64,000 nt of DNA from Escherichia coli (lineage in GTDB: Bacteria > Pseudomonadota > Gammaproteobacteria > Enterobacterales > Enterobacteriaceae), in NCBI RefSeq assembly GCF_029227855.1, contig NZ_CP074356.1. One strand, 5' to 3'. The position numbers and the translations under genes were made by a program. Positions 1,665 through 54,755 of this stretch are shown piece after piece. Numbering within the stretch: the first letter of the stretch is position 1; every line of letters begins with the position of its first letter. The notes beneath the pieces are model-generated. The model was not told where the DNA came from, made no database searches, and saw nothing but the letters and a program-made list of their open reading frames with translations.

Positions 1665-3742
<2,078 letters not shown>

Positions 3743-3743
<1 letters not shown>

Positions 3744-4809
3744 TACAGCACTCCTTTCGACGAGGGCAGAGTATCGCCTTCCACGCGGATGGCCTGGCGC
3801 AGGGTGCGACCAAAGGCTTTAAAGAGACTCTCTACACGGTGATGATCGTTTTTACCTTTGGTTTTCAGGTGCAACGTCACGCCCATGGTGTAAGAGAGCG
3901 AACGGAAGAAGTGCTCGATCATTTCAGTGCTGAGATCGCCCACGCGCTGGTAGGTAAATTCAGCTTTATATTCCAGGTGCGGGCGACCAGAGATATCCAG
4001 CGCGCAGCGGGCAAGGCATTCGTCCATCGGCAGCACAAAACCAAAGCGGCAAATACCGCGTTTGTCGCCAAGAGCAATTTTTAACGCTTCGCCCAGCGCC
4101 AGGCCGGTATCTTCGACGGTGTGGTGATCGTCGATATAGAGGTCGCCTTTGACGTTGATTTCCATGCGGAAACCGCCGTGGGTAGCGATCTGATCCAGCA
4201 TGTGATCAAAGAAGCCAACACCGGTGTTAATCTTGCTGCCACCTTCGCGATCCAGCCACACCTGGACGTCAATTTGCGTCTCTTTGGTGTTGCGCACTAC
4301 ATGGGCGTAACGGTCTCGTTTAGTGAGCTGCTCGCCAATCATTGGCCAGTTCAGGGTTTCGCGGTCATAGCGTAAACCATTAATGCCCATGTTTTCCGCC
4401 AGCTGAATATCGGTCGCGCGATCGCCAATCACATAACTATTGGCACGATCCATCGCTTGCTCAGCGAGATAACGCTCCACCAGTTTTACTTTCGGCTTAC
4501 GGCAGTCGCACTCATCGGCGGGCAGGTGAGGACAAATCAGCACTTCATCAAACTGCACGCCTTGCGAGGTGAAGATCTGCATCATCAGGTTGTGCGGGCC
4601 ATCAAAATCCTCCTGCGGGAAACTTTGTGTTCCAAGACCATCCTGATTAGTGATCATCACCAGCTTGTAGCCCGCTTTTTGCAGCTTCAGCAGCTCCGGG
4701 ATCACGCCTGGTTCAAAGGCGAGTTTGTCAAAACGGTCCACCTGAAAATCACTCGGCGGTTCGCTAATCAGGGTTCCATCGCGATCGATAAAAAGATACT
4801 TCTGACTCA

Positions 4810-8086: not shown

Positions 8087-8134
8087 TTTCTTATTCCTCT
8101 TTAAACCTGTCTGAACCGTTATCAACAGCGCAAT

Positions 8135-8167
8135 AAAAAAGCCCCCGGAAGGTGATCTTCCGGGGGC
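8135..8167 (-). terminator. his attenuator terminator hairpin
   Basis: The minus strand reads gcccccggaagatcaccttccgggggc followed by TTTTTT. It lies between hisL and hisG. Confidence 0.85.
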
Positions 8168-45033: not shown

Positions 45034-45109
45034 TCCTCTGTAGTTCAGTCGGTAGAACGGCGGACTGTTAATCCGTATGTCACTGGTTCGAGTCCAGTCA
45101 GAGGAGCCA
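45034..45109 (+). tRNA. asnW: tRNA-Asn (anticodon GUU); integration target of the island
   Basis: 76 nt identical to asnV/asnU. Its 3' 16 nt form part of the island direct repeat. Confidence 0.98.
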
Positions 45110-45113
45110 AATT
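45094..45113 (+). repeat. attL direct repeat (tRNA 3' end)
   Basis: CCAGTCAGAGGAGCCAAATT. Confidence 0.9.
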
Positions 45114-45270
45114 CAAGTTTTCATGCTTATCTGTACGTCTCTATTTGTTTACGATTCAGTAAGTTAGCGTGAAAATCCTTCCCGGTGCGTATCTGGTTTT
45201 CTCTCTGTATCGGGATAATTTGGTGGTCAGATCTGGGGTCAGTTTGGTTCGATTCTGGAGTGACCCCCAA

Positions 45271-46532
45271 ATGTCTTTAAACGATTCTAAAATCCGCAAG
45301 TTAAAACCCTCTTCCCGTCTGGTAAAACTCTCCGACTCTCACGGTCTGTATCTGCTCGTCAATCCGGGCGGTTCACGCATCTGGTATCTCAAATATCGTT
45401 TCAACGGAAAAGAATCCAGAGTCAGTCTTGGCGCATACCCGCTTGTCTCACTGGCAGAAGCCAGGCAACAGCGCGACGGTATCCGTAAGTTACTGGCGCA
45501 GAATATCAACCCGGCGCAGCAGCGCATGGCGGAGAAAGCGGCCTGCTCCCCTGAAAAGTGCTTTAAGGCAGTGGCGCTGGCCTGGCACAAAACCAACAAA
45601 AAATGGTCGGCTGATTATGCCGCCCGTATTCTCGCCAGTATGGAAAACCATATCTTCCCGGCGATTGGTCATCTGCCAGTTGCCACTCTTAAAACGCAGG
45701 ATTTACTGCTTTGTTGCGGGTTATCGAGGATAAAGGCTTTCTGGAAGTCGCGTCCCGAACCCGGCAGCAACTCAGCAACATCATGCGCTATGCCGTTCAG
45801 CAGGGGCTTACCGAAAGCAATCCGGCGCAGCATCTGGATGGCGTTGTCGCCTCACCCGTAAAGAATCACTACCCCGCGTTACTGCTGGAGCGGTTGCCCG
45901 AACTGCTTGGCCGCATCGGTGACTATCAGCAGGGCCGGGAGTTAACACGGCTGGCGGTGGTGCTGACGTTGCACCTGTTTATCCGTTCCAGCGAACTGCG
46001 TTTCGCCCGCTGGAGCGAGATCGATTTCAGGCACAAAATCTGGACCATCCCCGCCACCCGCGAGGCAATCGACAAAGTACGGTTTTCGGGGCGTGGCGCA
46101 AAAATACGTACCCCGCATATCGTGCCGCTCTCCCGCCAGGCGATTGCCATTCTGAAACAGATACAGGAGCTTTCCGGCCATCTGGATCTGGTGTTTCCCG
46201 GTGATCATAACCCGTACAAGCCAATGAGTGAAAACACCACCAACCGGGCGCTACGCCTGATGGGGTATGATACGAAAACTGAAATCTGCGGGCATGGACT
46301 CAGGGCGATGGCCTGTAGCGCCCTGGTGGAGTCGGAGCTGTGGTCACGCGATACGGTGGAGCGGCAAATGAGCCACCAGGAGCGTAACAGCGTGCGGGCA
46401 GCCTATGTGCATAAAGCGGAGCATCTGGAGGCCAGAAAGGCCATGATGCAGTGGTGGTCGGATTATCTGGATGTGTGCCGCGAGGGGTATGTTGCGCCGT
46501 ACATTTATGCCCGGCAGCATAAGGCAGCCTGA
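45271..46532 (+). pseudogene. int: P4-type tyrosine integrase, disrupted by a 1-nt frameshift near 45706-45710
   Basis: The N-terminal part (MSLNDSKIRKLKPS...LKTQDLL) is in frame 1. The continuation (LLRVIEDKGFLEVASR...HGLRAM...RAAYVH) is in frame 3. Joining needs one extra base. The catalytic HxxR and Y are present downstream. Confidence 0.85.
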
Positions 46533-46568
46533 ATCAGAAATAACGGAAATCATTAAAAATGTAAAAGC

Positions 46569-46594
46569 AGATCCTGATTGACCGGGATCTGCTT
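46569..46594 (+). terminator. Hairpin after the integrase gene
   Basis: agcagatcc-tgattgacc-gggatctgct. The T tract is weak. Confidence 0.4.
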
Positions 46595-46737
46595 ATTGTA
46601 TTGAGAAGTATTACCATTTTTCTGTTATTATCAATCGGAAAGTATCTAAAAATATTTGGCCCCAAATAATTTTGGTGAAAACCAATCAATAAACCATTTA
46701 TCAATAGGTAAGTACCGGAAATTATTCCAGTAGAATA

Positions 46738-47092
46738 TTTTCAGGCGATTGCCTATTAATAAATACATTATTGATAGATAAGTGCCTTCTGTGATTTGTC
46801 CGCAAATCACAGAAGATGAAAACCTATCAATACGGGATATTTTCACGGAAATACCAATTAATACTCCAGAATATCTCCTGACCATATACTCTGAAACCTG
46901 TAAGAACTGCATCAGATATTGAGAGACCATATAGATATAAGTCTGAAATTATTTTGTTTCCAATGATTTCAGGCGAAAACCTATCAATGCATCTGTTTTC
47001 AATAGGCAGCCACCTTCCGTGATTAACATGTTAATCACGGAAGGTGAAAAGCTATCAATAATCGATATTTTCACGGAATTACCACTTAATAC
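46738..47092. repeat. Two diverged ~127-bp tandem units (46738-46864, 46967-47092; period ~229 bp), each centred on a 30-32-bp palindrome
   Basis: Both units start with tttcaggcga and end with gatattttcacggaaNtaccaNttaatac. Palindrome A is cttctgtgatttgtccgcaaatcacagaag (46786-46815). Palindrome B is the perfect 32-mer ccttccgtgattaacatgttaatcacggaagg (47013-47044). Confidence 0.85.
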
Positions 47093-47688
47093 ATCCCAAA
47101 AAATGCGCCATAAAATACCGGGCAATCTTTCCTGATACACATTATCACTGCACCAGCTATACAGAGACAAAATAATCTGCACCAGCCCCTGTAAATCGGT
47201 TATTTGTGCCAGTGTCCCGCCGCTCTACCTGTTCAGGGTTGTGCCAGTTTCTGGCCCTTTGGTTTTCGGCCCTTTCCGGTCAGGCGCTGTTACCCTTATT
47301 GCCCCTTAACCTTTATGACCCTTTCCCTTTCTGACGCAACCAGTTTATTTTGAAATGCTCCATGACAGTCTGCACCAGACTGTATTTTCACCACAGGATA
47401 ACGATCACAAAGTGCAAAAAAATAACATGAAGCACCGAAGATTGTTAATCTATATGTAGCAGGTAATGATGTCAAAAACTGTCGCAGCATTTTTTATAAA
47501 ATTATGAGACATTCTGTGGGCATATAATATATGTCACAAGATGCAGGAAAACAAAGAGAGAGTTTTCAGATATAATCCTGCGTTAGAATTAATGTGATGC
47601 CCCGGTGAATTTACATTTTAAAATTTCCCTGTCCCGTAATATCGGTAAAAACGATTGAAACACCAACTATTAATCGGGAACGTCTCGA

Positions 47689-47707
47689 GTGATTACAGGG
47701 TAATCAC
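47689..47707. repeat. Third GTGATTA...TAATCAC palindrome
   Basis: gtgattac-agg-gtaatcac shares half-sites with the palindromes at 46786 and 47013. Confidence 0.7.
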
Positions 47708-47869
47708 TATAATATCCCGGCAAACTATATTGGTTAAGCAGGAGAATCTGATCAGTTGATATTTATTCGTCATGCTGTAACGATATTTTCACAATATAAA
47801 CCCGTTCGCCCCCTGCGCCAGATCCGGTACAGAGGGTACGATAAATCGCTGTCGTTACGCAGTAACGTA

Positions 47870-48487
47870 CTATTTTGCGACAATCATGAATTCAGTCATT
47901 CCTCCCTCCAGCGGTAGCCGTACACCTGTTTCACCCAGCGACCGCGACCGTCGCCATGACCCAGATCCGTCGCCGTCAGCGCCAGTGACTCCTTTTCGCT
48001 GAATCCCTGCGCCAGTATCCAGGACTGTCGTATAACGGGGACGCCCGCCTTTGGTGCCAAATACCACTTTTAACCGGGTTTCACCGCGGGAAATGGCTTT
48101 CAGCCACGTTTTCAGCGACTGTGAACTCTGTACCGCCTCCTGCGAACGCAGCCCCATCAGCCGCGCAATCTCCAGCGCTGCTGCCAGCCCTGCGTCCTGA
48201 GTACGGGCTTTCTCCATCACCTGCCTGCGTCCAGCCTGTCTCAGCACGGCCCGCAACGCTGCCATTTCGTTTTGCAACGTTCGTAAACCAATATCCAGCT
48301 CCAGCCGTTCCTCAATGTAGCATTCGATATGGCGAACCTTGATCTGCTCCACCCGCTGGATCTGGATATTCAGCGCCCGTAAATGTTCACTGAACCGTTT
48401 TGTAATATGGATACGGTCATTCACCGTTGTGAAGCTGCCGCCCGCTTTCTTCGCCAGCGCCTTCATTTCACTGCTTAATTTACTCAT
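47870..48487 (-). pseudogene. Degraded integrase/recombinase-like gene (N-terminal domain retained, internal deletion plus frameshift)
   Basis: The 205-aa ORF starts MSKLSSEMKALAKKAGGSFTTVNDRIHITKRF...IKVRHIECYIEERL, which looks like a recombinase N-terminal domain (recalled). After ...GGRPRYTTVLD the sensible continuation (WILAQGFSEKESLALTATDLGHGDGRGRWVKQVYG) lies in another frame (48021 to 47896). Confidence 0.45.
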
Positions 48488-49403
48488 GAATCCCTCTGCA
48501 ACAAAAACAAACAGTCTCCGGCGTGTGCTTTTTGGCTGCGCCAGAACGATACCTTTACGCCGGAGTGGTAGTTTGTTGAGGTTTAGGGAGTTTCAGGCTG
48601 TACGCAGTACAGACTGCCTGCGAAGCAGGAGTGTCTCCGGGGCTTCTTGCCCCCCTCGGTATCGATCTTTTTCTCCTTTACTCTTAGCTGACAGCGGCCC
48701 CAAAGGGCATGTCAGACGGCGGAAATATGGCGCAGGCCAGAACTGGCGCGGCTTGTGGCGGTGAGTTGTGCGGCGTCACTTTGCTTTTTCGCTGGCGCGA
48801 CCAAAGTGACGCCTCGTCTGGTGCAGGGGGTAAACGTTACGTTTCTGGTGCAGGGTGACGGTCACGCGGCAGCAAAGCCTGACGGCAATGCAGGCCGCAG
48901 CCCGTCAATGTAAGGCGCTGGTTGTCAGCAGAAGATAAAACCCGGCAAAGCCAGAGTGTCAGCCCGTAAAGCCGGGTATCTGGTGCAGTGATGGTGTATA
49001 TGTACGTCAGTCTCAGATGCAGGTATTTTTGCATCCCCGGCGTTTTCAGAGATCAACGCCGGTAAAGGATGCCATGCTGGCGAAGCCAGGCGCTTCTTTC
49101 AGACGTGAAGCGACAAAGGGACTGCCCGGAGGCAGTTTGTTGCAGGCGGGAGACTGCGCCATTATTTCTGGTGCAGGAAGGAAAAACTGTTTCCGGGTTT
49201 AAAAGATTGTTTGCTTACCTGGTGACGGAAAAACTGCCGCGCTTCGCTTGTCTTCTCCCGGCGCGCTGCCAGCAAAAGCAGGCAGCGCGCCGGGAGAGTC
49301 TGGTTTTACTGTAACAATGCGCCTGACGGTTCAGCCATCAGGATCGGCGTTTATGCATGAGTCTTCCGGTACGGTTGCCCCGATCATCGATGTATCTGGA
49401 CGG

Positions 49404-49592
49404 TCAGATAATTTCCGGTGATGTTTCCAGCGCATCCGCAATCAGTTTTTCGCCGCGCGGCCTGGAGCGGGTCAGCGCATTTGCCAGCGTGGAAGACGCC
49501 AGCCCGGCCCTGCGGGAAACCTCAGCCAGCGATGTTCCCTTTTTTCTCAGGCCCGCGATAATATCGGCGGGGTGCCAGTCGGGTTGCATCAT
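49404..49592 (-). CDS. Ner/Nlp(SfsB)-family HTH DNA-binding protein, C-terminally truncated by TGG to TGA
   Basis: 62-aa ORF (MMQPDWHPADIIAGLRKKGTSLAEVSRRAGLASSTLANALTRSRPRGEKLIADALETSPEII*). The frame continues PSRYIDD... after the stop, where family members read W-PSRY. Confidence 0.65.
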   Translation of the reverse strand: MMQPDWHPADIIAGLRKKGTSLAEVSRRAGLASSTLANALTRSRPRGEKLIADALETSPEII

Positions 49593-50050
49593 GCTGGCCT
49601 CCCGTCGATAACCTGTATGCCGTCAGCAGTACATATCCAGCGTGGGGCGTTCAGATTGGCGGCAAAATACCAGACCAGTTCGCACAGCAGCCCGGTCAGC
49701 GTGGTTTCGGTTTCCGGCAGCAGCACGTGGCCGTTCAGTATCTGCGTCAGCGCCAGGCAGTAATCGCAGAGTGATCCTGCATCAGGCTCAAAACCGGGTG
49801 AAACATCGGGAAGATCATTCGTAATAAACCCGTCAATCAGATGTGGTGGGATCGGCTCGTTCAGCGTGGGCCGCAACAGTGCAAGACAGGTATTAAGCCT
49901 GCCACAGAGCGCCGTTTTCAGCGCCGGATCGCAGCACTCGATGAGCGTTGTGGCAACGCGATCGCAGTACTCCGCCAGATCGGTGAAATCGGTAGCGGCA
50001 CTAAAGGGAACAGCAAGTAAATTGCATTCAGAGGTGAGAGTAGTCGCCAT
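49589..50050 (-). CDS. Hypothetical 153-aa Cys-rich acidic protein, translationally coupled to the Ner-like gene
   Basis: The ORF (MATTLTSECNLLAVPFSAATDF...) ends in an ATGA overlap with the downstream Ner-like start. No family was recognised and the SD is weak. Confidence 0.45.
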   Translation of the reverse strand: MATTLTSECNLLAVPFSAATDFTDLAEYCDRVATTLIECCDPALKTALCGRLNTCLALLRPTLNEPIPPHLIDGFITNDLPDVSPGFEPDAGSLCDYCLALTQILNGHVLLPETETTLTGLLCELVWYFAANLNAPRWICTADGIQVIDGRPA

Positions 50051-50571
50051 AAGGCCGTCTACAGTGAGTGATAAATATTCCAGCCACTGGAGAGGCTAAT
50101 CTCACGGGTGGTGGAACCGGACGGGGTTAGCCTTACCAGCCTCACTGACACTGGCGCGTCTTTCGACGCCCCCGCCCGATCCCGCCATTGAGATGAGACC
50201 GTGCGCGACACACAAATATTGTATCGTCAGTGAGGATCTTCAGGAGGCTAATCCCGACGCCTGATTTTGCAGGCGCGGCGCAACAATACAATGTTCGGTA
50301 ATTTTCAGCAAGAGGTTTAGCGGAAGCAGACGCACAGGAAAATACAATCACGCGATAAATATTAAATACAATTATATTTATATAAAATATATATTGAGCA
50401 ATATGCAGACACTTTCCAGTAAATATCCTGTCAGTTAATTCGTCCCGTTGATATCAGTCAAAAAAATAAATGTAAAAAGAGCGTATTTCGTTTCATACAG
50501 TAACGTTATTTATCATTTTGTCCGGTGTCGCCAGCATCAGGCCAGATGAACCATAAAAAAGGATATCAGCG

Positions 50572-53500
50572 ATGAGCGGAAAACCGGCAGCACGTCAGGG
50601 CGATGCCACAATGAAAGGTGGCCCGATAGTCCAGGGGTCGGCAGGCGTGAGGATTGGCGCGCCAACCGGCGTGGCCTGTTCAGTGTGCCCCGGCGGATTC
50701 ACTTCCGGTAACCCGGTGAATCCGCTGCTCGGTGCAAAAGTACAGCCCGGCGAAACCGATTTCGCGCTGCCCGGCCCGTTACCGTTCGTGCTCTCCCGCA
50801 CCTACAGCAGCTACCGGACGAAAACCCCTGCGCCCGTCGGTATCTTCGGTCCTGGCTGGAAAGCACCCTTTGATATCCGCTTACAGATACGCGATAACGA
50901 ACTGATACTCAATGATAACGGTGGCAGAAGCATTCATTTTGAGCACCTGTTTCCCGGTGAGGATGGCTTCAGCCGCAGCGAATTATTCTGGCTGGTGCGC
51001 GGCGGCGTGGCGAAACTGAATGAAAGTCACCGTCTTGCCCCACTCTGGCAGGCTCTGCCGGAAGAACTCCGCATGAGTCCGCATATTTATCTGGCGACGA
51101 ACAGTCCGCAGGGGCCGTGGTGGATACTCGGCTGGAGTGAGCGGGTACCGGGTGTGGATGAGGTGCTGCCTGCGCCATTGCCGCCGTACCGGGTGCTGAC
51201 CGGCCTGGTGGACCGCTTCGGGCGTACCCTGACCTTCCGGCGTGAGGCAGTTGGCGAATTTACCGGGGAAATCACCGGCGTGACCGATGGCGCAGGCCGT
51301 CAGTTCCGCCTGGTGCTGACCACGCAGGCGCAGCGGGCGGAAGAGGCCCAGCAGCAGGCGGTTGCAGCCGGAGCAAAACGACCAGATATCCCGGTTTCAT
51401 TGCCGGACTATACAGAATATGGCCGGGATAACGGCATCCGCCTGTCAGCGGTGTGGCTGACGCATGACCCGGAATACCCGGAGAATTTACCTGCCGCGCC
51501 ACTGGTGCGCTACGACTGGACGCCACGCGGTGAACTGGCGGCGGTGTATGACCGCAGCGGTACGCAGATGCGCCACTTTACTTACGATGATAAATACCGG
51601 GGCCGGATGGTGGCGCACCGTTACGCAGGCAGGCCGGAGATGCGTTACCGCTACGACGACATCGGGCGCGTGACGGAACAACGTAATCCGGCGGGTTTAA
51701 GCTACACCTATCAGTATGAGAAAAACCGCATCATCATCACCGACAGCCTGAACCGGTGCGAGGTGCTGCATACAGAAGGCGAAGCCGGGCTGAAACGGGT
51801 GGTGAAAAAAGAGCACGCTGACGACAGCGTCACACAGAGTCAGTTCGATTCCATTGGCCGCCTTCAGTCACAGACGGATGCGGCAGGCCGGACGACAGAA
51901 TACAGTCCGAATGTGGTGACGGGTCTCGTCACACGCATCACCACGCCGGACGGCAGGAAATCGGAATTTTACTATAACAACCAGAACCAGTTAACCTCAG
52001 CATCCGGGCCTGACGGACTGGAAATGCGCAGGAAATATGATGAGTACGGGCGTCTGACGCAGGAAACCGCTCGCAACGGCGATATCACCCGCTACAGTTA
52101 TGATAATCCGCACAGTGAATTACCCTCTGCAACTGAAGATGCGACGGGTAGCCGCAAGCAGATGACGTGGAGCCGTTACGGGCAGTTACTGACTTTCACC
52201 GACTGCTCAGGCTACCAGACCCGTTATGAATACGACCGCTTTGGTCAGATGACGGCGGTCCACCGTGAGGAAGGTGTCAGTCTTTACCGCAGCTATGACA
52301 GCCGTGGTCAGTTAATCTCGGTGAAAGATACGCAGGGCCGTGAAACGCAGTATGAGTACAACGGTGCAGGCGACCTGACCGCCATTATCACGCCAGACGA
52401 CAACAGAAGCGAGACACAGTACGATGCGTGGGGAAAGGCCGTCAGTACCACGCAGGGCGGGCTGACGCGCAGCATGGAATACGACGTTGCCGGACGTGTC
52501 ATCAGCCTGACCAACGAGAACGGCTGTCACAGCGACTTCAGTTACGATGTGCTCGACCGCCTGATACAGCAGAGCGGCTTTGACGGGCGGACGCAACGTT
52601 ACCGTTACGACCTGACCGGGAAACTCACGCAGAACGAGGATGAGGGGCTTGTCACCCTCTGGCACTACGACGAATCGGACCGTATCACACACCGCACGGT
52701 GAACGGCGAACCGGCAGAGCAGTGGCGGTATAACGCCCACGGCTGGCTGAAAGAAATCAGCCACCTGAGCGAAGGTCACCGGGTGGCGGTGCATTACGGC
52801 TATAACCGTAAGGGACGTCTCACCGGCGAGCGCCAGACGGTGCATAACCCGGAGACGGGGGAACTGCTCTGGCTGCATGAGACAAAACACGCCTACAACG
52901 AACAGGGTCTGGCAAACCGCGTCACGCCGGACTGCCTGCCTGCTGTGGAGTGGCTGACCTACGGCAGCGGTTACCTGGCGGGGATGAAGCTGGGCGACAC
53001 GCCGCTGCTGGAGTACGCGCGCGACCGCCTGCACAGAGAAACGGTGCGCAGCTTTGGCAGCATGGCAGGCAGTAATGCCGCATACGAACTGACCAGCACA
53101 TACACCCCCGCAGGCCAGTTACAGAGCCAGCACCTGAACAGCCTGGTGTATGACCGTGACTATGGGTGGAATGACAACGGCGACCTGGTGCGCATCAGCG
53201 GCCCGCGACAGACGCGGGAATACGGCTACAGCGCCACGGGCAGGCTGGCGAGTGTGCGCACCCTCGCACCGGACCTGGACATCCGCATCCCGTATGCCAC
53301 GGACCCGGCGGGCAACCGGCTGCCGGACCCGGAGCTGCACCCGGACAGTACACTCACAGTGTGGCCGGATAACCGCATCGCGGAGGATGCGCACTATGTC
53401 TACCGCCACGATGAATACGGCAGGCTGACGGAGAAGACGGACCGCATCCCGGCGGGTGTGATACGGACGGACGACGAGCGGACCCACCACTACCACTACG

Positions 53501-54753
53501 ACAGCCAGCACCGCCTGGTGTTCTACACGCGGATACAGCATGGAGAGCCACTGGTCGAGAGCCGCTACCTCTACGACCCGCTGGGACGGCGAATGGCGAA
53601 AAGGGTATGGCGGCGGGAGCGTGACCTGACGGGGTGGATGTCGCTGTCGCGTAAACCGGAGGAGACATGGTACGGGTGGGACGGCGACAGGCTGACGACG
53701 GTGCAGACTGACACCACGCGTATCCAGACGGTGTACCAGCCGGGAAGCTTCACGCCGCTCATCAGAATCGAAACAGACGTGACCGAACTGGAGAAAGCGC
53801 AGCGGCGAAGCCTGGCGGAGAAGTTACAGCAGGAAGGGAGTAAAGATGGTCACGGCGTGGTGTTCCCGCCTGAACTGGTGCGGCTGCTGGACAGGCTGGA
53901 GGGGGAAATCCGGGCAGACCGTGTGAGTGACGAAAGCCGGGCGTGGCTTGCGCAGTGCGGGCTGACGGTGGAGCGGCTGGCGGCACAGATCGAGCCAGTT
54001 TATTTGCCTGAGCGAAAAATACATCTTTATCACTGCGACCACCGGGGACTGCCGCTGGCGCTTATCAGTACTGAAGGTGCAACGGAATGGCGTGGGGAGT
54101 ATGACGAGTGGGGGAATCAGCTTAATGAGGAGAACCCGCATCATCTGTTCCAGCCATACCGCCTGCCGGGGTAGCAGTACGATGATGAATCGGGGCTGTG
54201 CTATAATCGTTATCGTTACTACGAGCCGTTACAAGGGAGGTATATTACACAGGACCCGATTGGGTTAAATGGGGGGTGGAATTTATATAAATATCCGCTG
54301 AATCCAATAAATTATGCAGATCCTCTTGGCTTAGCCGTAGATATAAACCACTTCCCAGTCAACGAAGACATACGAAATTATGCAGAGAAAGTTTGGAATA
54401 ATCCTAATATCATTACAATTGGAACACATGGTGATCCTCAATCAGTATATGATGAAAATTATAATAAGATAGATGTCAAGACATTAGCTAATGAGGTTCG
54501 AAATCATCCTAAATTTAAACCTGGAATGTCAGTAAGACTGTTATCCTGTAATACAGGAAAAGGAAATAACTCTTTTGCACAGCAATTGGCAGATGAACTA
54601 GGTGTGAGAGTCTATGCTCCTGACCAATATGACTGGTACTATTCAAATGGTAAGGTAGAGCCTTGGGGAGGATTCTATGATGCAAACAATCAATTGCAAA
54701 TGGACACGAATCAGCCTGGACATGAGTTTACATTCAAGCGAAGGAAACCATAG
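50572..54753 (+). pseudogene. rhs: PAAR-Rhs polymorphic toxin interrupted by a single in-frame amber codon (TAG 54172-54174)
   Basis: The N terminus is a PAAR-like domain ([11 protein letters not shown]...[10 protein letters not shown]), followed by many YD repeats. After ...PYRLPG* the same frame continues [31 protein letters not shown]...YADPLGL (DPxGL at 54319-54333) and a 139-aa AT-rich tip ending at 54753. Confidence 0.9.
54334..54750 (+). other. Rhs C-terminal variable (toxin) domain, family not recognised
   Basis: 139 codons follow DPLGL and composition switches abruptly to AT-rich. The string ...[10 protein letters not shown]... is followed 40 residues later by ...[11 protein letters not shown]... 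(His codon 54427, Cys codon 54547). Confidence 0.6.
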
Positions 54754-54755
54754 GT

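Follow-up and report, generated by a model that had tools for sequence, protein, structure and literature searches.

We analysed a 970-bp segment (positions 46738-47707) of an Escherichia coli chromosome, within a window of 64,000 nucleotides (NCBI RefSeq assembly GCF_029227855.1, contig NZ_CP074356.1). "The window" hereafter means that whole stretch. The segment lies in the gap between the convergent genes int and int2 of a genomic island at a tRNA-Asn gene, and it is a mosaic: a lineage-restricted hairpin array on the left and conserved island backbone on the right. The array is made of hairpin-capable repeats of ~70 bp, and repeats of this family are confined to Escherichia and Salmonella versions of a single tRNA-island backbone. 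The simplest reading of its variation is that the property kept is the intrastrand pairing of the DNA and not its sequence, since compensatory changes are frequent, stems vary less than loops, and there is no strand bias.

The anatomy of the array was derived from an alignment of 28 distinct alleles, which came from genomes of E. coli, from metagenomes, and from E. albertii and E. whittamii. Its main part (46625-47093) is a head-to-tail series of five dyad-symmetric units of ~70 bp, and a half unit follows at 47667-47712 (Table 1). Each unit begins and ends with the boxes of an outer stem of ~10 bp (TTATYRATWGG / CCWATYRATAA), inside which lie an A-rich 5x5 mismatch, with ~5 A-rich unpaired bases per side, a short middle stem, and an inner stem with arms of 11-18 bp around a centre of 0-8 nt. 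The sequence of the inner stem differs between units, with its self-complementarity kept. The right-hand arm of the middle stem and the A-rich linker together read approximately GGTGAAAAC and lead into the inverted outer box CCWATYRATAA; in unit U2, the outer stem is formed by TATTGATAG and CTATCAATA. All units have 27-39% G+C and are co-oriented in the integrase sense. Units U2 and U3 are each followed by a tail, GATATTTTCACGGAAWTACCAMTTAATAC, that ends in one further outer box.

The initial annotation, made from the letters of the window, had described tandem ~127-bp units built around long palindromes. Two such copies are real (46734-46864 and 46962-47092; 73% identical, with starts spaced by 228 bp), but they are not adjacent, as ~97 bp lie between them, and the alignment identifies the ~70-bp dyad as the basic repeat. 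The 228-bp repeat is a higher-order duplication comprising two units, a tail, and the start of the next block. The three palindromes pointed out at the time, here called A, B, and C, are all present and correspond to the inner stems of three units; the perfect stretch of B, at 36 bp, exceeds the 32 bp first noted. An extra half-site block, GATATTTTCACGGAA(A/T)TACCA, follows A (46836) and B (47064) as described, and CGATATTTTCAC occurs again downstream of C. The count of three was also right for a second motif, GAAAA(C/G)CTATCAAT, but two of its copies lie one base away from where they had been placed.

The repeat-dense, non-coding character of the region is genuine. No convincing gene was found in 46533-47870, as the initial annotation had proposed for this gap. 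The longest perfect arm measured 18, compared with a mean of 6.4-6.8 and a maximum of 12 in 500 dinucleotide-preserving shuffles. Short words were 6- to 20-fold more frequent than expected (GTGAWWW 14 vs 2.4, TTTTCAC 6 vs 0.26, and ATCAATA 5 vs 0.64), in counts that are inflated by duplication and concern words picked after the sequence had been viewed. Indels between alleles measured 1, 2, 8, 14, 70, 71, 141, 230, and 243 bp, those of 70-243 bp being unit-sized. In some alleles, a 14-bp duplication in the 46865-46921 spacer creates a full copy of CTGCACCAG. A covariance model built from 27 units gave five matches in the window, all within 46625-47063, with the next best at E = 0.56, and the integrase-sense orientation scored higher in every case. 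As a separate observation, a metagenomic E. coli contig (L028, 1600-1640) carries a deletion or rearrangement junction right after CTGCACCAGAATA in the array spacer, beyond which the sequence is from inside a distant Ig-like (yeeJ-type) gene; only this one case was seen.

Pairing was conserved both among orthologous alleles and among the units themselves. In the orthologue stems, nine pairs had changed on both sides, compared with 3.5 +/- 1.0 in shuffles (0/500 reached nine) and 0-1 in slid controls. When 27 units from Escherichia and Salmonella were analysed with an a-priori structure of pure mirror symmetry, 72.7% of cells were paired (slid control 34-40%, shuffled 60.5%), 24 of the 33 pairs had changed on both sides (slid control 9-13, shuffled 20.3), and the covariation score was 0.347 (slid control <= 0.12, shuffled 0.146, with 0/500 reaching the observed value); here, as in the orthologue comparison, the shuffle controls ignore phylogeny. 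Several inner-stem positions, including the pair formed by columns 24/49, were paired in 27/27 units with three pair types (e.g., AU 13, UA 8, GC 6). Individual cases illustrate how the arms change. The inner palindrome of U0 has the allelic form TTCAC-YR-GTGAA elsewhere, so that the step from TTTGG/CCAAA to TTCAC/GTGAA comprises three compensated pairs. U3' shows a compensated A-T to C-G change in one allele, and in U3 one pair runs through the series G-C, G-T, A-T across orthologues while the centre changes from ACATGT to ACGCGT.

Nucleotide diversity (pi) was 0.058 in stems and 0.151 in loops and linkers, a 2.6-fold difference, and codon position 3 of the adjacent integrase gene, at 0.126, had about twice the stem value; the data themselves guided part of the choice of orthologue stems, which favours a low stem diversity. 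Both strands folded far better than shuffled sequences (z-score -8.4 for the plus and -7.7 for the minus strand). With an unbiased definition of pairs, G·T and A·C combinations occurred in 19 columns each, and in the unit alignment the bias between the two ran in opposite directions in inner and outer stems. The balance between G·T and A·C and the reversal of their bias thus single out neither strand as an RNA.

Our preferred explanation, held tentatively, is that the units act as DNA hairpins or cruciforms that matter when island DNA is single-stranded. Under this explanation, intrastrand pairing would take place during transfer or replication, and the folded units would serve as structure-specific sites in cis, for example for priming of the complementary strand or for a structure-specific protein. 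We propose a role in single-stranded DNA because the island looks, by analogy with known systems, like a decayed integrative mobilisable element.

This analogy centres on int2, whose intact orthologue is a protein of 294 amino acids with the domains PF12834 and PF12835. PF12835 has been used as a signature of DNA-transfer-like integrases (PMC10484663). MpsA of Salmonella genomic island 1 (SGI1) is an atypical relaxase with a tyrosine-recombinase fold (PMC6414798), and the oriT of SGI1 and an essential small RNA sit just upstream of mpsA (PMC6414798, PMC9299015). Relaxases of this MOB_M class are reported to be abundant, mostly to adjoin integrases, and to go with type G mating-pair formation systems (MPF_G; preprint 10.64898/2026.01.13.699239). 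A 49%-identical int2 homologue is encoded on a Pantoea MPF_G plasmid that lacks a typed relaxase, where the order is STAXI-EFASI-gene-STAXI (EFASI and STAXI being Rfam motifs). By way of the Pfam signature cited in that literature, int2 is possibly a relaxase candidate of the MpsA/MOB_M type. The search for int2 homologues gave no functional names, and a tblastn search of plasmids did not reach MobK of pIGRK.

Like the mobilisation module of SGI1, the island combines a gene of tyrosine-recombinase fold, inverted-repeat-rich DNA in cis, an upstream structured RNA, and the setting of an integrative mobilisable island (PMC6414798, PMC9299015), with EFASI taking the place of the upstream SGI1 element at asnW. 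In SGI1, however, oriT is a GC-rich sequence of 125 bp upstream of mpsA, whereas the array is AT-rich and lies downstream of int2. In each of the loci examined (including L060 3151-5090 and L061 3160-3871), the PF12834/PF12835 gene had EFASI immediately upstream, and the plasmid order was STAXI-EFASI-gene(-STAXI). Because SGI1 has its oriT and the essential sgm-sRNA at this place upstream of mpsA, EFASI may, by analogy, be a candidate transfer origin, or the RNA cofactor of one, for the PF12834/PF12835 gene family. The plasmid STAXI copy on the downstream side of the gene means that the slot downstream of an int2-type gene is filled there by another tandem-hairpin element.

A number of observations weigh against a role of the hairpins in single-stranded DNA, in addition to the data-chosen stems and the phylogeny-blind shuffles described above. 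In characterised systems of the MOB_M type (MpsA/MobK/TcpM), the inverted-repeat-rich transfer origin is found upstream of the relaxase gene; here EFASI occupies that position and the array is downstream of int2, which speaks against a transfer origin in the array. The overall divergence of the array, 0.078, is ~0.6 of that at integrase codon position 3, so the constraint is not exceptional, and such a divergence is not unusual for intergenic DNA. Serratia, Klebsiella, Cedecea, Citrobacter, Pseudocitrobacter, and S. arizonae have the same backbone without the array, which is in this sense dispensable; its palindromes also remain perfect in islands with two recombinase pseudogenes, such as that of the window. 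Finally, some alleles carry blocks of clustered changes. In locus L003, U0 (8099-8162) has perfect arms of 26 bp, its left linker having been rewritten as the exact complement of the right one, and in locus L033 two clustered changes in U1 (equivalent to 46715-46735) re-centre the palindrome as TACCGGAAA-TT-TTTCCGGTA. Block changes that make new perfect palindromes are a hallmark of template switching at quasipalindromes, a process that gives compensatory change without selection. Pairing of this kind could arise by mutation alone.

The same two alleles bear on a strong alternative, which we regard as only somewhat less probable than the preferred explanation: a functionless, self-perpetuating palindromic minisatellite in a selectively neutral gap between convergent genes. 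It would have been amplified from an AT-rich quasi-palindrome by slippage and unequal crossing-over, and hairpin-templated repair (template switching), not selection, would keep its arms complementary. Such a satellite would account for the clustered multi-base changes of L003 U0 and L033 U1, for the unit-wise change in copy number with junctions inside homologous boxes, and for the persistence of the array in decayed islands. It also fits the decay of duplicate tails, a divergence that is ordinary for intergenic DNA, and the lack of the array from the backbone of other genera, where a cargo gene occupies the same slot in Cedecea. On the other hand, stems are 2.6-fold less variable than loops and linkers and have about half the diversity of codon position 3, which counts against it because no drop in substitution rate is expected from unbiased conversion between arms. 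Escherichia and Salmonella share the design, including the non-complementary A-rich loop and the fixed polarity, despite different inner-stem sequences, and the tail core ATATTTTCAC was invariant in 28/28 aligned sequences.

The initial annotation had also raised the possibility of structured RNAs, and the balance of evidence makes this improbable. The array would then be transcribed, by read-through from the integrase gene or from its own promoter, and its hairpins would stabilise 3' ends in the manner of repetitive extragenic palindromic sequences (REPs) and bacterial interspersed mosaic elements (BIMEs), or would be small RNAs. The plus strand does fold far better than shuffles, all units have one polarity in the integrase sense, and among mostly Watson-Crick pairs of the orthologues G·T exceeded A·C (12 vs 5 columns), a difference that was not significant. 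Vesicle preparations of one E. coli strain, moreover, gave a real-time PCR signal for the neighbouring EFASI (PMC12370729). But folding of the minus strand is just as good, G·T and A·C are equal under the unbiased definition, and inner and outer stems show opposite biases. The integrase stop codon is separated from the array by a strong, terminator-like hairpin that has a T run, and no convincing promoter or terminator was found around the units: promoter-like sites numbered 7 against 4.7 +/- 2.2 in shuffles, and terminator-like sites were likewise not above shuffles. A scan with Rfam 15 returned no family for the array at gathering or permissive thresholds, EFASI being found only at 48543-48670; the best matches in 46533-47900 were chance hits to microRNA hairpins of <=23 bits, far below gathering.

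We consider it quite improbable that the palindromes are operators or iterons, as had been suggested from their shared GTGATT half-sites. On that account, GTGATT-N8-AATCAC and the half-sites would bind a dimeric regulator or recombinase that controls int, int2, replication, or recombination. Palindromes A, B, and C indeed share TYC-N-GTGATT arms around a centre of 7-8 bp and so match a tyrosine-recombinase core site in size; GTGAWWW is over-represented, two recombinase genes adjoin, and a separate, clearly iteron-like 9-mer (CTGCRCCAG) surrounds int2. However, the inner palindromes differ from unit to unit and change by compensated double substitutions in their arms, which is the opposite of selection by a dimer that reads sequence. 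U0, U1, U3', and the Salmonella units have unrelated inner sequences in the same dyad geometry. The central spacers vary in sequence, and in C also in length (3 or 4 nt, depending on the allele), and the centres of A, B, and C all differ, so that mutual recombination is not possible. Both flanking genes converge on the array, which is thus upstream of neither. To our knowledge, no consensus site for CRP, LexA, Fur, Zur, ArgR, Lrp, CueR, or tetO fits in spacing or sequence, and consensus scans for IHF sites and DnaA boxes gave no matches. Arm sites of a P4-type integrase were tried and rejected: their consensus is G-rich (GGGGGCA in P4), and the local equivalent, GGGGTCA, adjoins the integrase start codon, unlike the AT-rich boxes of the array. 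A word common to the tails and the attL arm, CGTGAAAAT, is absent from the aspV version of the island and was treated as a chance match.

Folded recombination sites offer another analogy. Integron attC sites, including the arrays of Vibrio cholerae repeats (VCRs), resemble the array in having a conserved imperfect dyad with variable sequence, an outer stem, an unpaired central spacer, and an inner stem, and in adjoining tyrosine recombinase genes; attC is recognised as a structure rather than as a sequence. It is conceivable, but in our judgement very improbable, that the units are folded single-strand sites, analogous to attC or to the attP hairpin of CTX phage, whose shape is recognised by an island-encoded enzyme with a tyrosine-recombinase fold. 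A recombinase core site would then be mimicked by the outer stem, the A-rich unpaired spacer, and the inner stem in combination, and the enzyme would be the PF12835/MOB_M-like protein or the P4-type Int, acting during single-stranded transfer. Unlike attC, the units have no RYYYAAC/GTTRRRY boxes at their ends, the sole GTTRRRY in 46533-47870 lying at 47733. There is no IntI-type integrase, the flanking genes encoding a P4-type Int and a PF12834/PF12835 protein, and no conserved cassette open reading frames (ORFs) between units. The central mismatch is fully paired in L003 U0, and the signs of recombination are limited to homology-guided loss of units.

The last alternative, a decayed coding sequence with an internal protein repeat, is scarcely tenable: plus-strand ORFs at 46782-46922 and 47019-47135 do share ITExExLSIxDIFTExPxNT, and one RefSeq genome (O145 RM12367) annotates a hypothetical protein of 99 amino acids there, but palindromic DNA gives similar peptides on both strands, indels are not multiples of three, the open frames differ between alleles (indels of 1, 2, 8, 14, and 71 bp) with two alleles lacking any frame of >=40 codons, no ORF is conserved, the proposed start codon is lost in most alleles, and no Pfam match was found. 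The annotated gene of E. coli O145 RM12367 (L002 6227-6526) runs on the minus strand across U2 to U3; as its frame is not conserved, it is probably a false gene call.

Compared with known repeats, the array is a cluster of intergenic DNA palindromes on a mobile element that lacks the defining features of REP/BIME, attC, and STAXI elements. It resembles REPs and BIMEs as a cluster of imperfect palindromes with conserved linkers in a non-coding gap, often between convergent genes, which forms hairpins on either strand and changes its copy number by units. REPs are GC-rich elements of ~35-40 bp, present in hundreds of copies around the chromosome with alternating orientation within a cluster, whereas the array units are of ~70 bp, have 27-39% G+C, are co-oriented, and are confined to one island backbone, with no copy elsewhere in the 64-kb window. 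STAXI (Rfam RF01728) also forms tandem hairpins, and on plasmids it takes the slot on the upstream side of EFASI and the one that immediately follows the int2 homologue, but its consensus is unrelated and GC-richer, and the array segment gave no STAXI match even at E <= 10. The crr locus of phage P4 is similar in having two ~120-bp direct repeats 180 bp apart near a P4-type int, with short words repeated in both orientations; unlike the array, which is 3' of int, crr (4291-4590) lies beyond attP (4078-4097) from int (2607-3926), by the primase gene. P4 crr (alpha-protein) iterons were rejected, as the type I iteron TGTTCACC is absent from both strands of 46533-47870 and the position is wrong. 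A superficial likeness to parS of P1/P7 (GGTGAAAT...CGATTTCAC) was also dismissed: by the parS pattern of four copies of box A, ATTTCA(A/C), and two of box B, TCGCCA, around an IHF site, the region offers a single box A, which lies beyond the array at 47356, and lacks both box B and the IHF consensus.

The initial annotation had proposed a search for conservation in related islands, and the array proved to be conserved in islands of E. coli, E. albertii, E. whittamii, and some Salmonella enterica. Matches were found in 461-519 of 5426 complete E. coli genomes, at 1-6 places per genome, all of them chromosomal and only in the island spacer. Further units detected with the covariance model occurred only in Escherichia and Salmonella versions of the backbone. 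Those of Salmonella enterica serovar India, a second Salmonella lineage, and the asnV island of E. coli NRG 857C/LF82 have different inner stems (for example, CGTACAAAAAATTTTG-GGGA-CAAAATTTTTTGTACG) in the same design; the Salmonella India locus and the second Salmonella locus rule out an Escherichia-specific array. The aspV version has a single unit. In the asnV island of NRG 857C, and likewise of LF82, an IS200C element stands immediately before the integrase terminator hairpin (L063 5985-6690), no units lie left of the conserved backbone block, and three Salmonella-type units lie right of it. In Cedecea colo (L012 7105-7665), a cargo ORF of ~180 codons, possibly for a P-loop protein, sits between the integrase terminator and the conserved block, the slot that the hairpin array takes in Escherichia. 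BLAST searches gave no match in phages and, among plasmids, only one chromosomal-looking Salmonella record. The array is without annotation in RefSeq records and without description in the literature searched (P4-like integrase, tRNA-Asn, inverted repeats).

Table 1. Features of the hairpin array, the adjoining backbone, and the flanking island genes (coordinates of the window)
Feature	Position	Strand	Description
tRNA-Asn (asnW position)	45034-45109	+	Island insertion site; last 17 nt (45093-45109) form the left attachment core
P4-type tyrosine integrase gene (int)	45272-46532	+	Frameshifted in the window (Prokaryotic Genome Annotation Pipeline, PGAP)
Integrase terminator-like hairpin	46565-46594		GC-rich; kept in all related loci, including other genera
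Unit U0	46625-46694	+	Inner palindrome TATTTGG-CC-CCAAATA
Unit U1	46695-46764	+	Inner arms GGAAATTATTC / GAATATTTTC; DNA fold -11.7 kcal/mol, z -5.6
Unit U2	46765-46835	+	Holds palindrome A (46786-46815); fold -17.3 kcal/mol, z -7.3
Tail A	46836-46864	+	GATATTTTCACGGAAATACCAATTAATAC
Spacer	46865-46921	+	Paralogous to 47093-47170; degenerate iteron CTGCATCAG at 46907-46915
Unit U3'	46922-46992	+	Arms CTGAAATTATT / AATGATTTCAG
Unit U3	46993-47063	+	Holds palindrome B (47011-47046); fold -17.8 kcal/mol, z -7.1
Tail B	47064-47092	+	Diverged copy of tail A; decayed in many alleles (TTTCCAC, TTCCCAC)
Backbone block	47100-47400	+	CTGCACCAG iterons at 47148, 47177, 47370; GGCCCTTT/CCCTT-rich core at 47238-47335
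AT-rich spacer	47401-47666		Fast-evolving, divergence 0.14; unrelated sequence instead in E. albertii
Half unit U4	47667-47712	+	Left outer box CTATTAATCGG and palindrome C (47689-47707); z -3.7
Third tail-core copy	47781-47792	+	CGATATTTTCAC
Conserved int2 3' flank	47800-47869	+	Iteron CTGCGCCAG (47813), hairpin CGTTACGCAGTAACG (47853-47867)
CTGCRCCAG copies	47148, 47177, 47370, 47813, 48007, 48536	+	Downstream of, within, and just upstream of int2
int2 remnant (second tyrosine-recombinase-fold gene)	47870-48487	-	Phage_int_SAM_2 and Integrase_1 (PF12834 and PF12835)
EFASI motif (Rfam RF02957)	48543-48670	-	100.8 bits; directly upstream of int2
CTGCRCCAG copies	48818, 48845, 48980, 49168	-	Further upstream of int2, beyond EFASI
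Right attachment copy	55646-55662		CCCAGTCAGAGGAGCCA; 16/17 match to the tRNA-Asn 3' end (one mismatch)

The backbone to the right of the array reaches beyond Escherichia and Salmonella. Positions 47238-47314 are the only part of the spacer conserved in Serratia, Klebsiella indica, Cedecea, Pseudocitrobacter, and S. arizonae; in these other genera, the convergent gap between int and int2 measures ~170-200 bp, and the tRNA beside the conserved block, where one was found, is tRNA-Phe. The GGCCCTTT/CCCTT block stands right after the int2 stop codon, bracketed by GCGCCAG ... CWGGCGC, and is ~80-94% identical across genera, compared with ~70% identity of the flanking proteins. The window has 14 copies of the iteron-like CTGCRCCAG (consensus approximately CTGCACCAGA), a motif that the initial annotation had not picked out, where 1.2 would be expected; 10 of them fall within 47148-49176. 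Their layout, with opposite orientations on the two sides of int2, is the same in the Serratia, Klebsiella, Cedecea, and Salmonella loci, and the 9-mer looks like the putative binding site of a module-encoded protein. The AT-rich spacer holds no conserved ORF, the alleles differing by 1-nt indels. A second palindrome family, CGTTACGCAGTAACG, is present in several copies in the aspV (L005 5650-5740) and E. albertii (L006, equivalent to 47470-47870) versions, often beside CTGCACCAG.

The island extends over ~10.5 kb (45093-55662), from the 3' end of tRNA-Asn to its right repeat, on a chromosome with the order asnV-nac-cbl-asnU-yeeO-asnW. Its genes are arranged as int, the 1.3-kb segment, the int2 remnant, EFASI, an HTH_35 gene with an ORF of 153 amino acids, the RNA elements C4/isrK/c4-a1b1, and Rhs. 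The intact integrase orthologue has the domains Arm-DNA-bind_3, Phage_int_M, and Phage_integrase. No primase or replication gene and no parAB were found in the island. A C4 antisense RNA of the P1/P7 type (50104-50289, minus strand, 62 bits) is accompanied by target-like isrK and c4-a1b1 elements that score just under Rfam gathering, and these elements lie upstream of the 153-amino-acid ORF and the HTH_35 gene. C4, and in most loci isrK as well, is retained with the module in other genera. The C4/isrK set looks like a control cassette of the phage-immunity type on a non-phage island. The cargo consists of a gene for an Rhs core protein (from 50572) and a tetratricopeptide repeat (TPR) protein. 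Genes for type VI secretion are present in the related islands at asnT and aspV. We found the same architecture in E. coli at asnT, asnW, asnV, and aspV, where its usual neighbour is cargo for type VI secretion or Rhs.

In E. coli and Salmonella, islands at tRNA genes have genes for type VI secretion and Rhs toxins as cargo, and the backbone described here pairs an integrase with a possible relaxase of the tyrosine-recombinase type, together with EFASI, C4/isrK, the CTGCRCCAG iterons, and the hairpin array. If the units were recognised as folded sites, they would represent a new class of site for structure-specific recombination or processing in genomic islands of Enterobacteriaceae. If, as we tentatively favour, the hairpins work in single-stranded DNA, they would offer a handle on how mobilisable islands of this minimal kind become established after entering a new host. 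If the hairpins have no function, the array would illustrate cleanly, in a natural setting, how template switching maintains palindromes. Either way, an array that RefSeq leaves unannotated can mislead gene callers, as the 99-amino-acid call in one genome illustrates.

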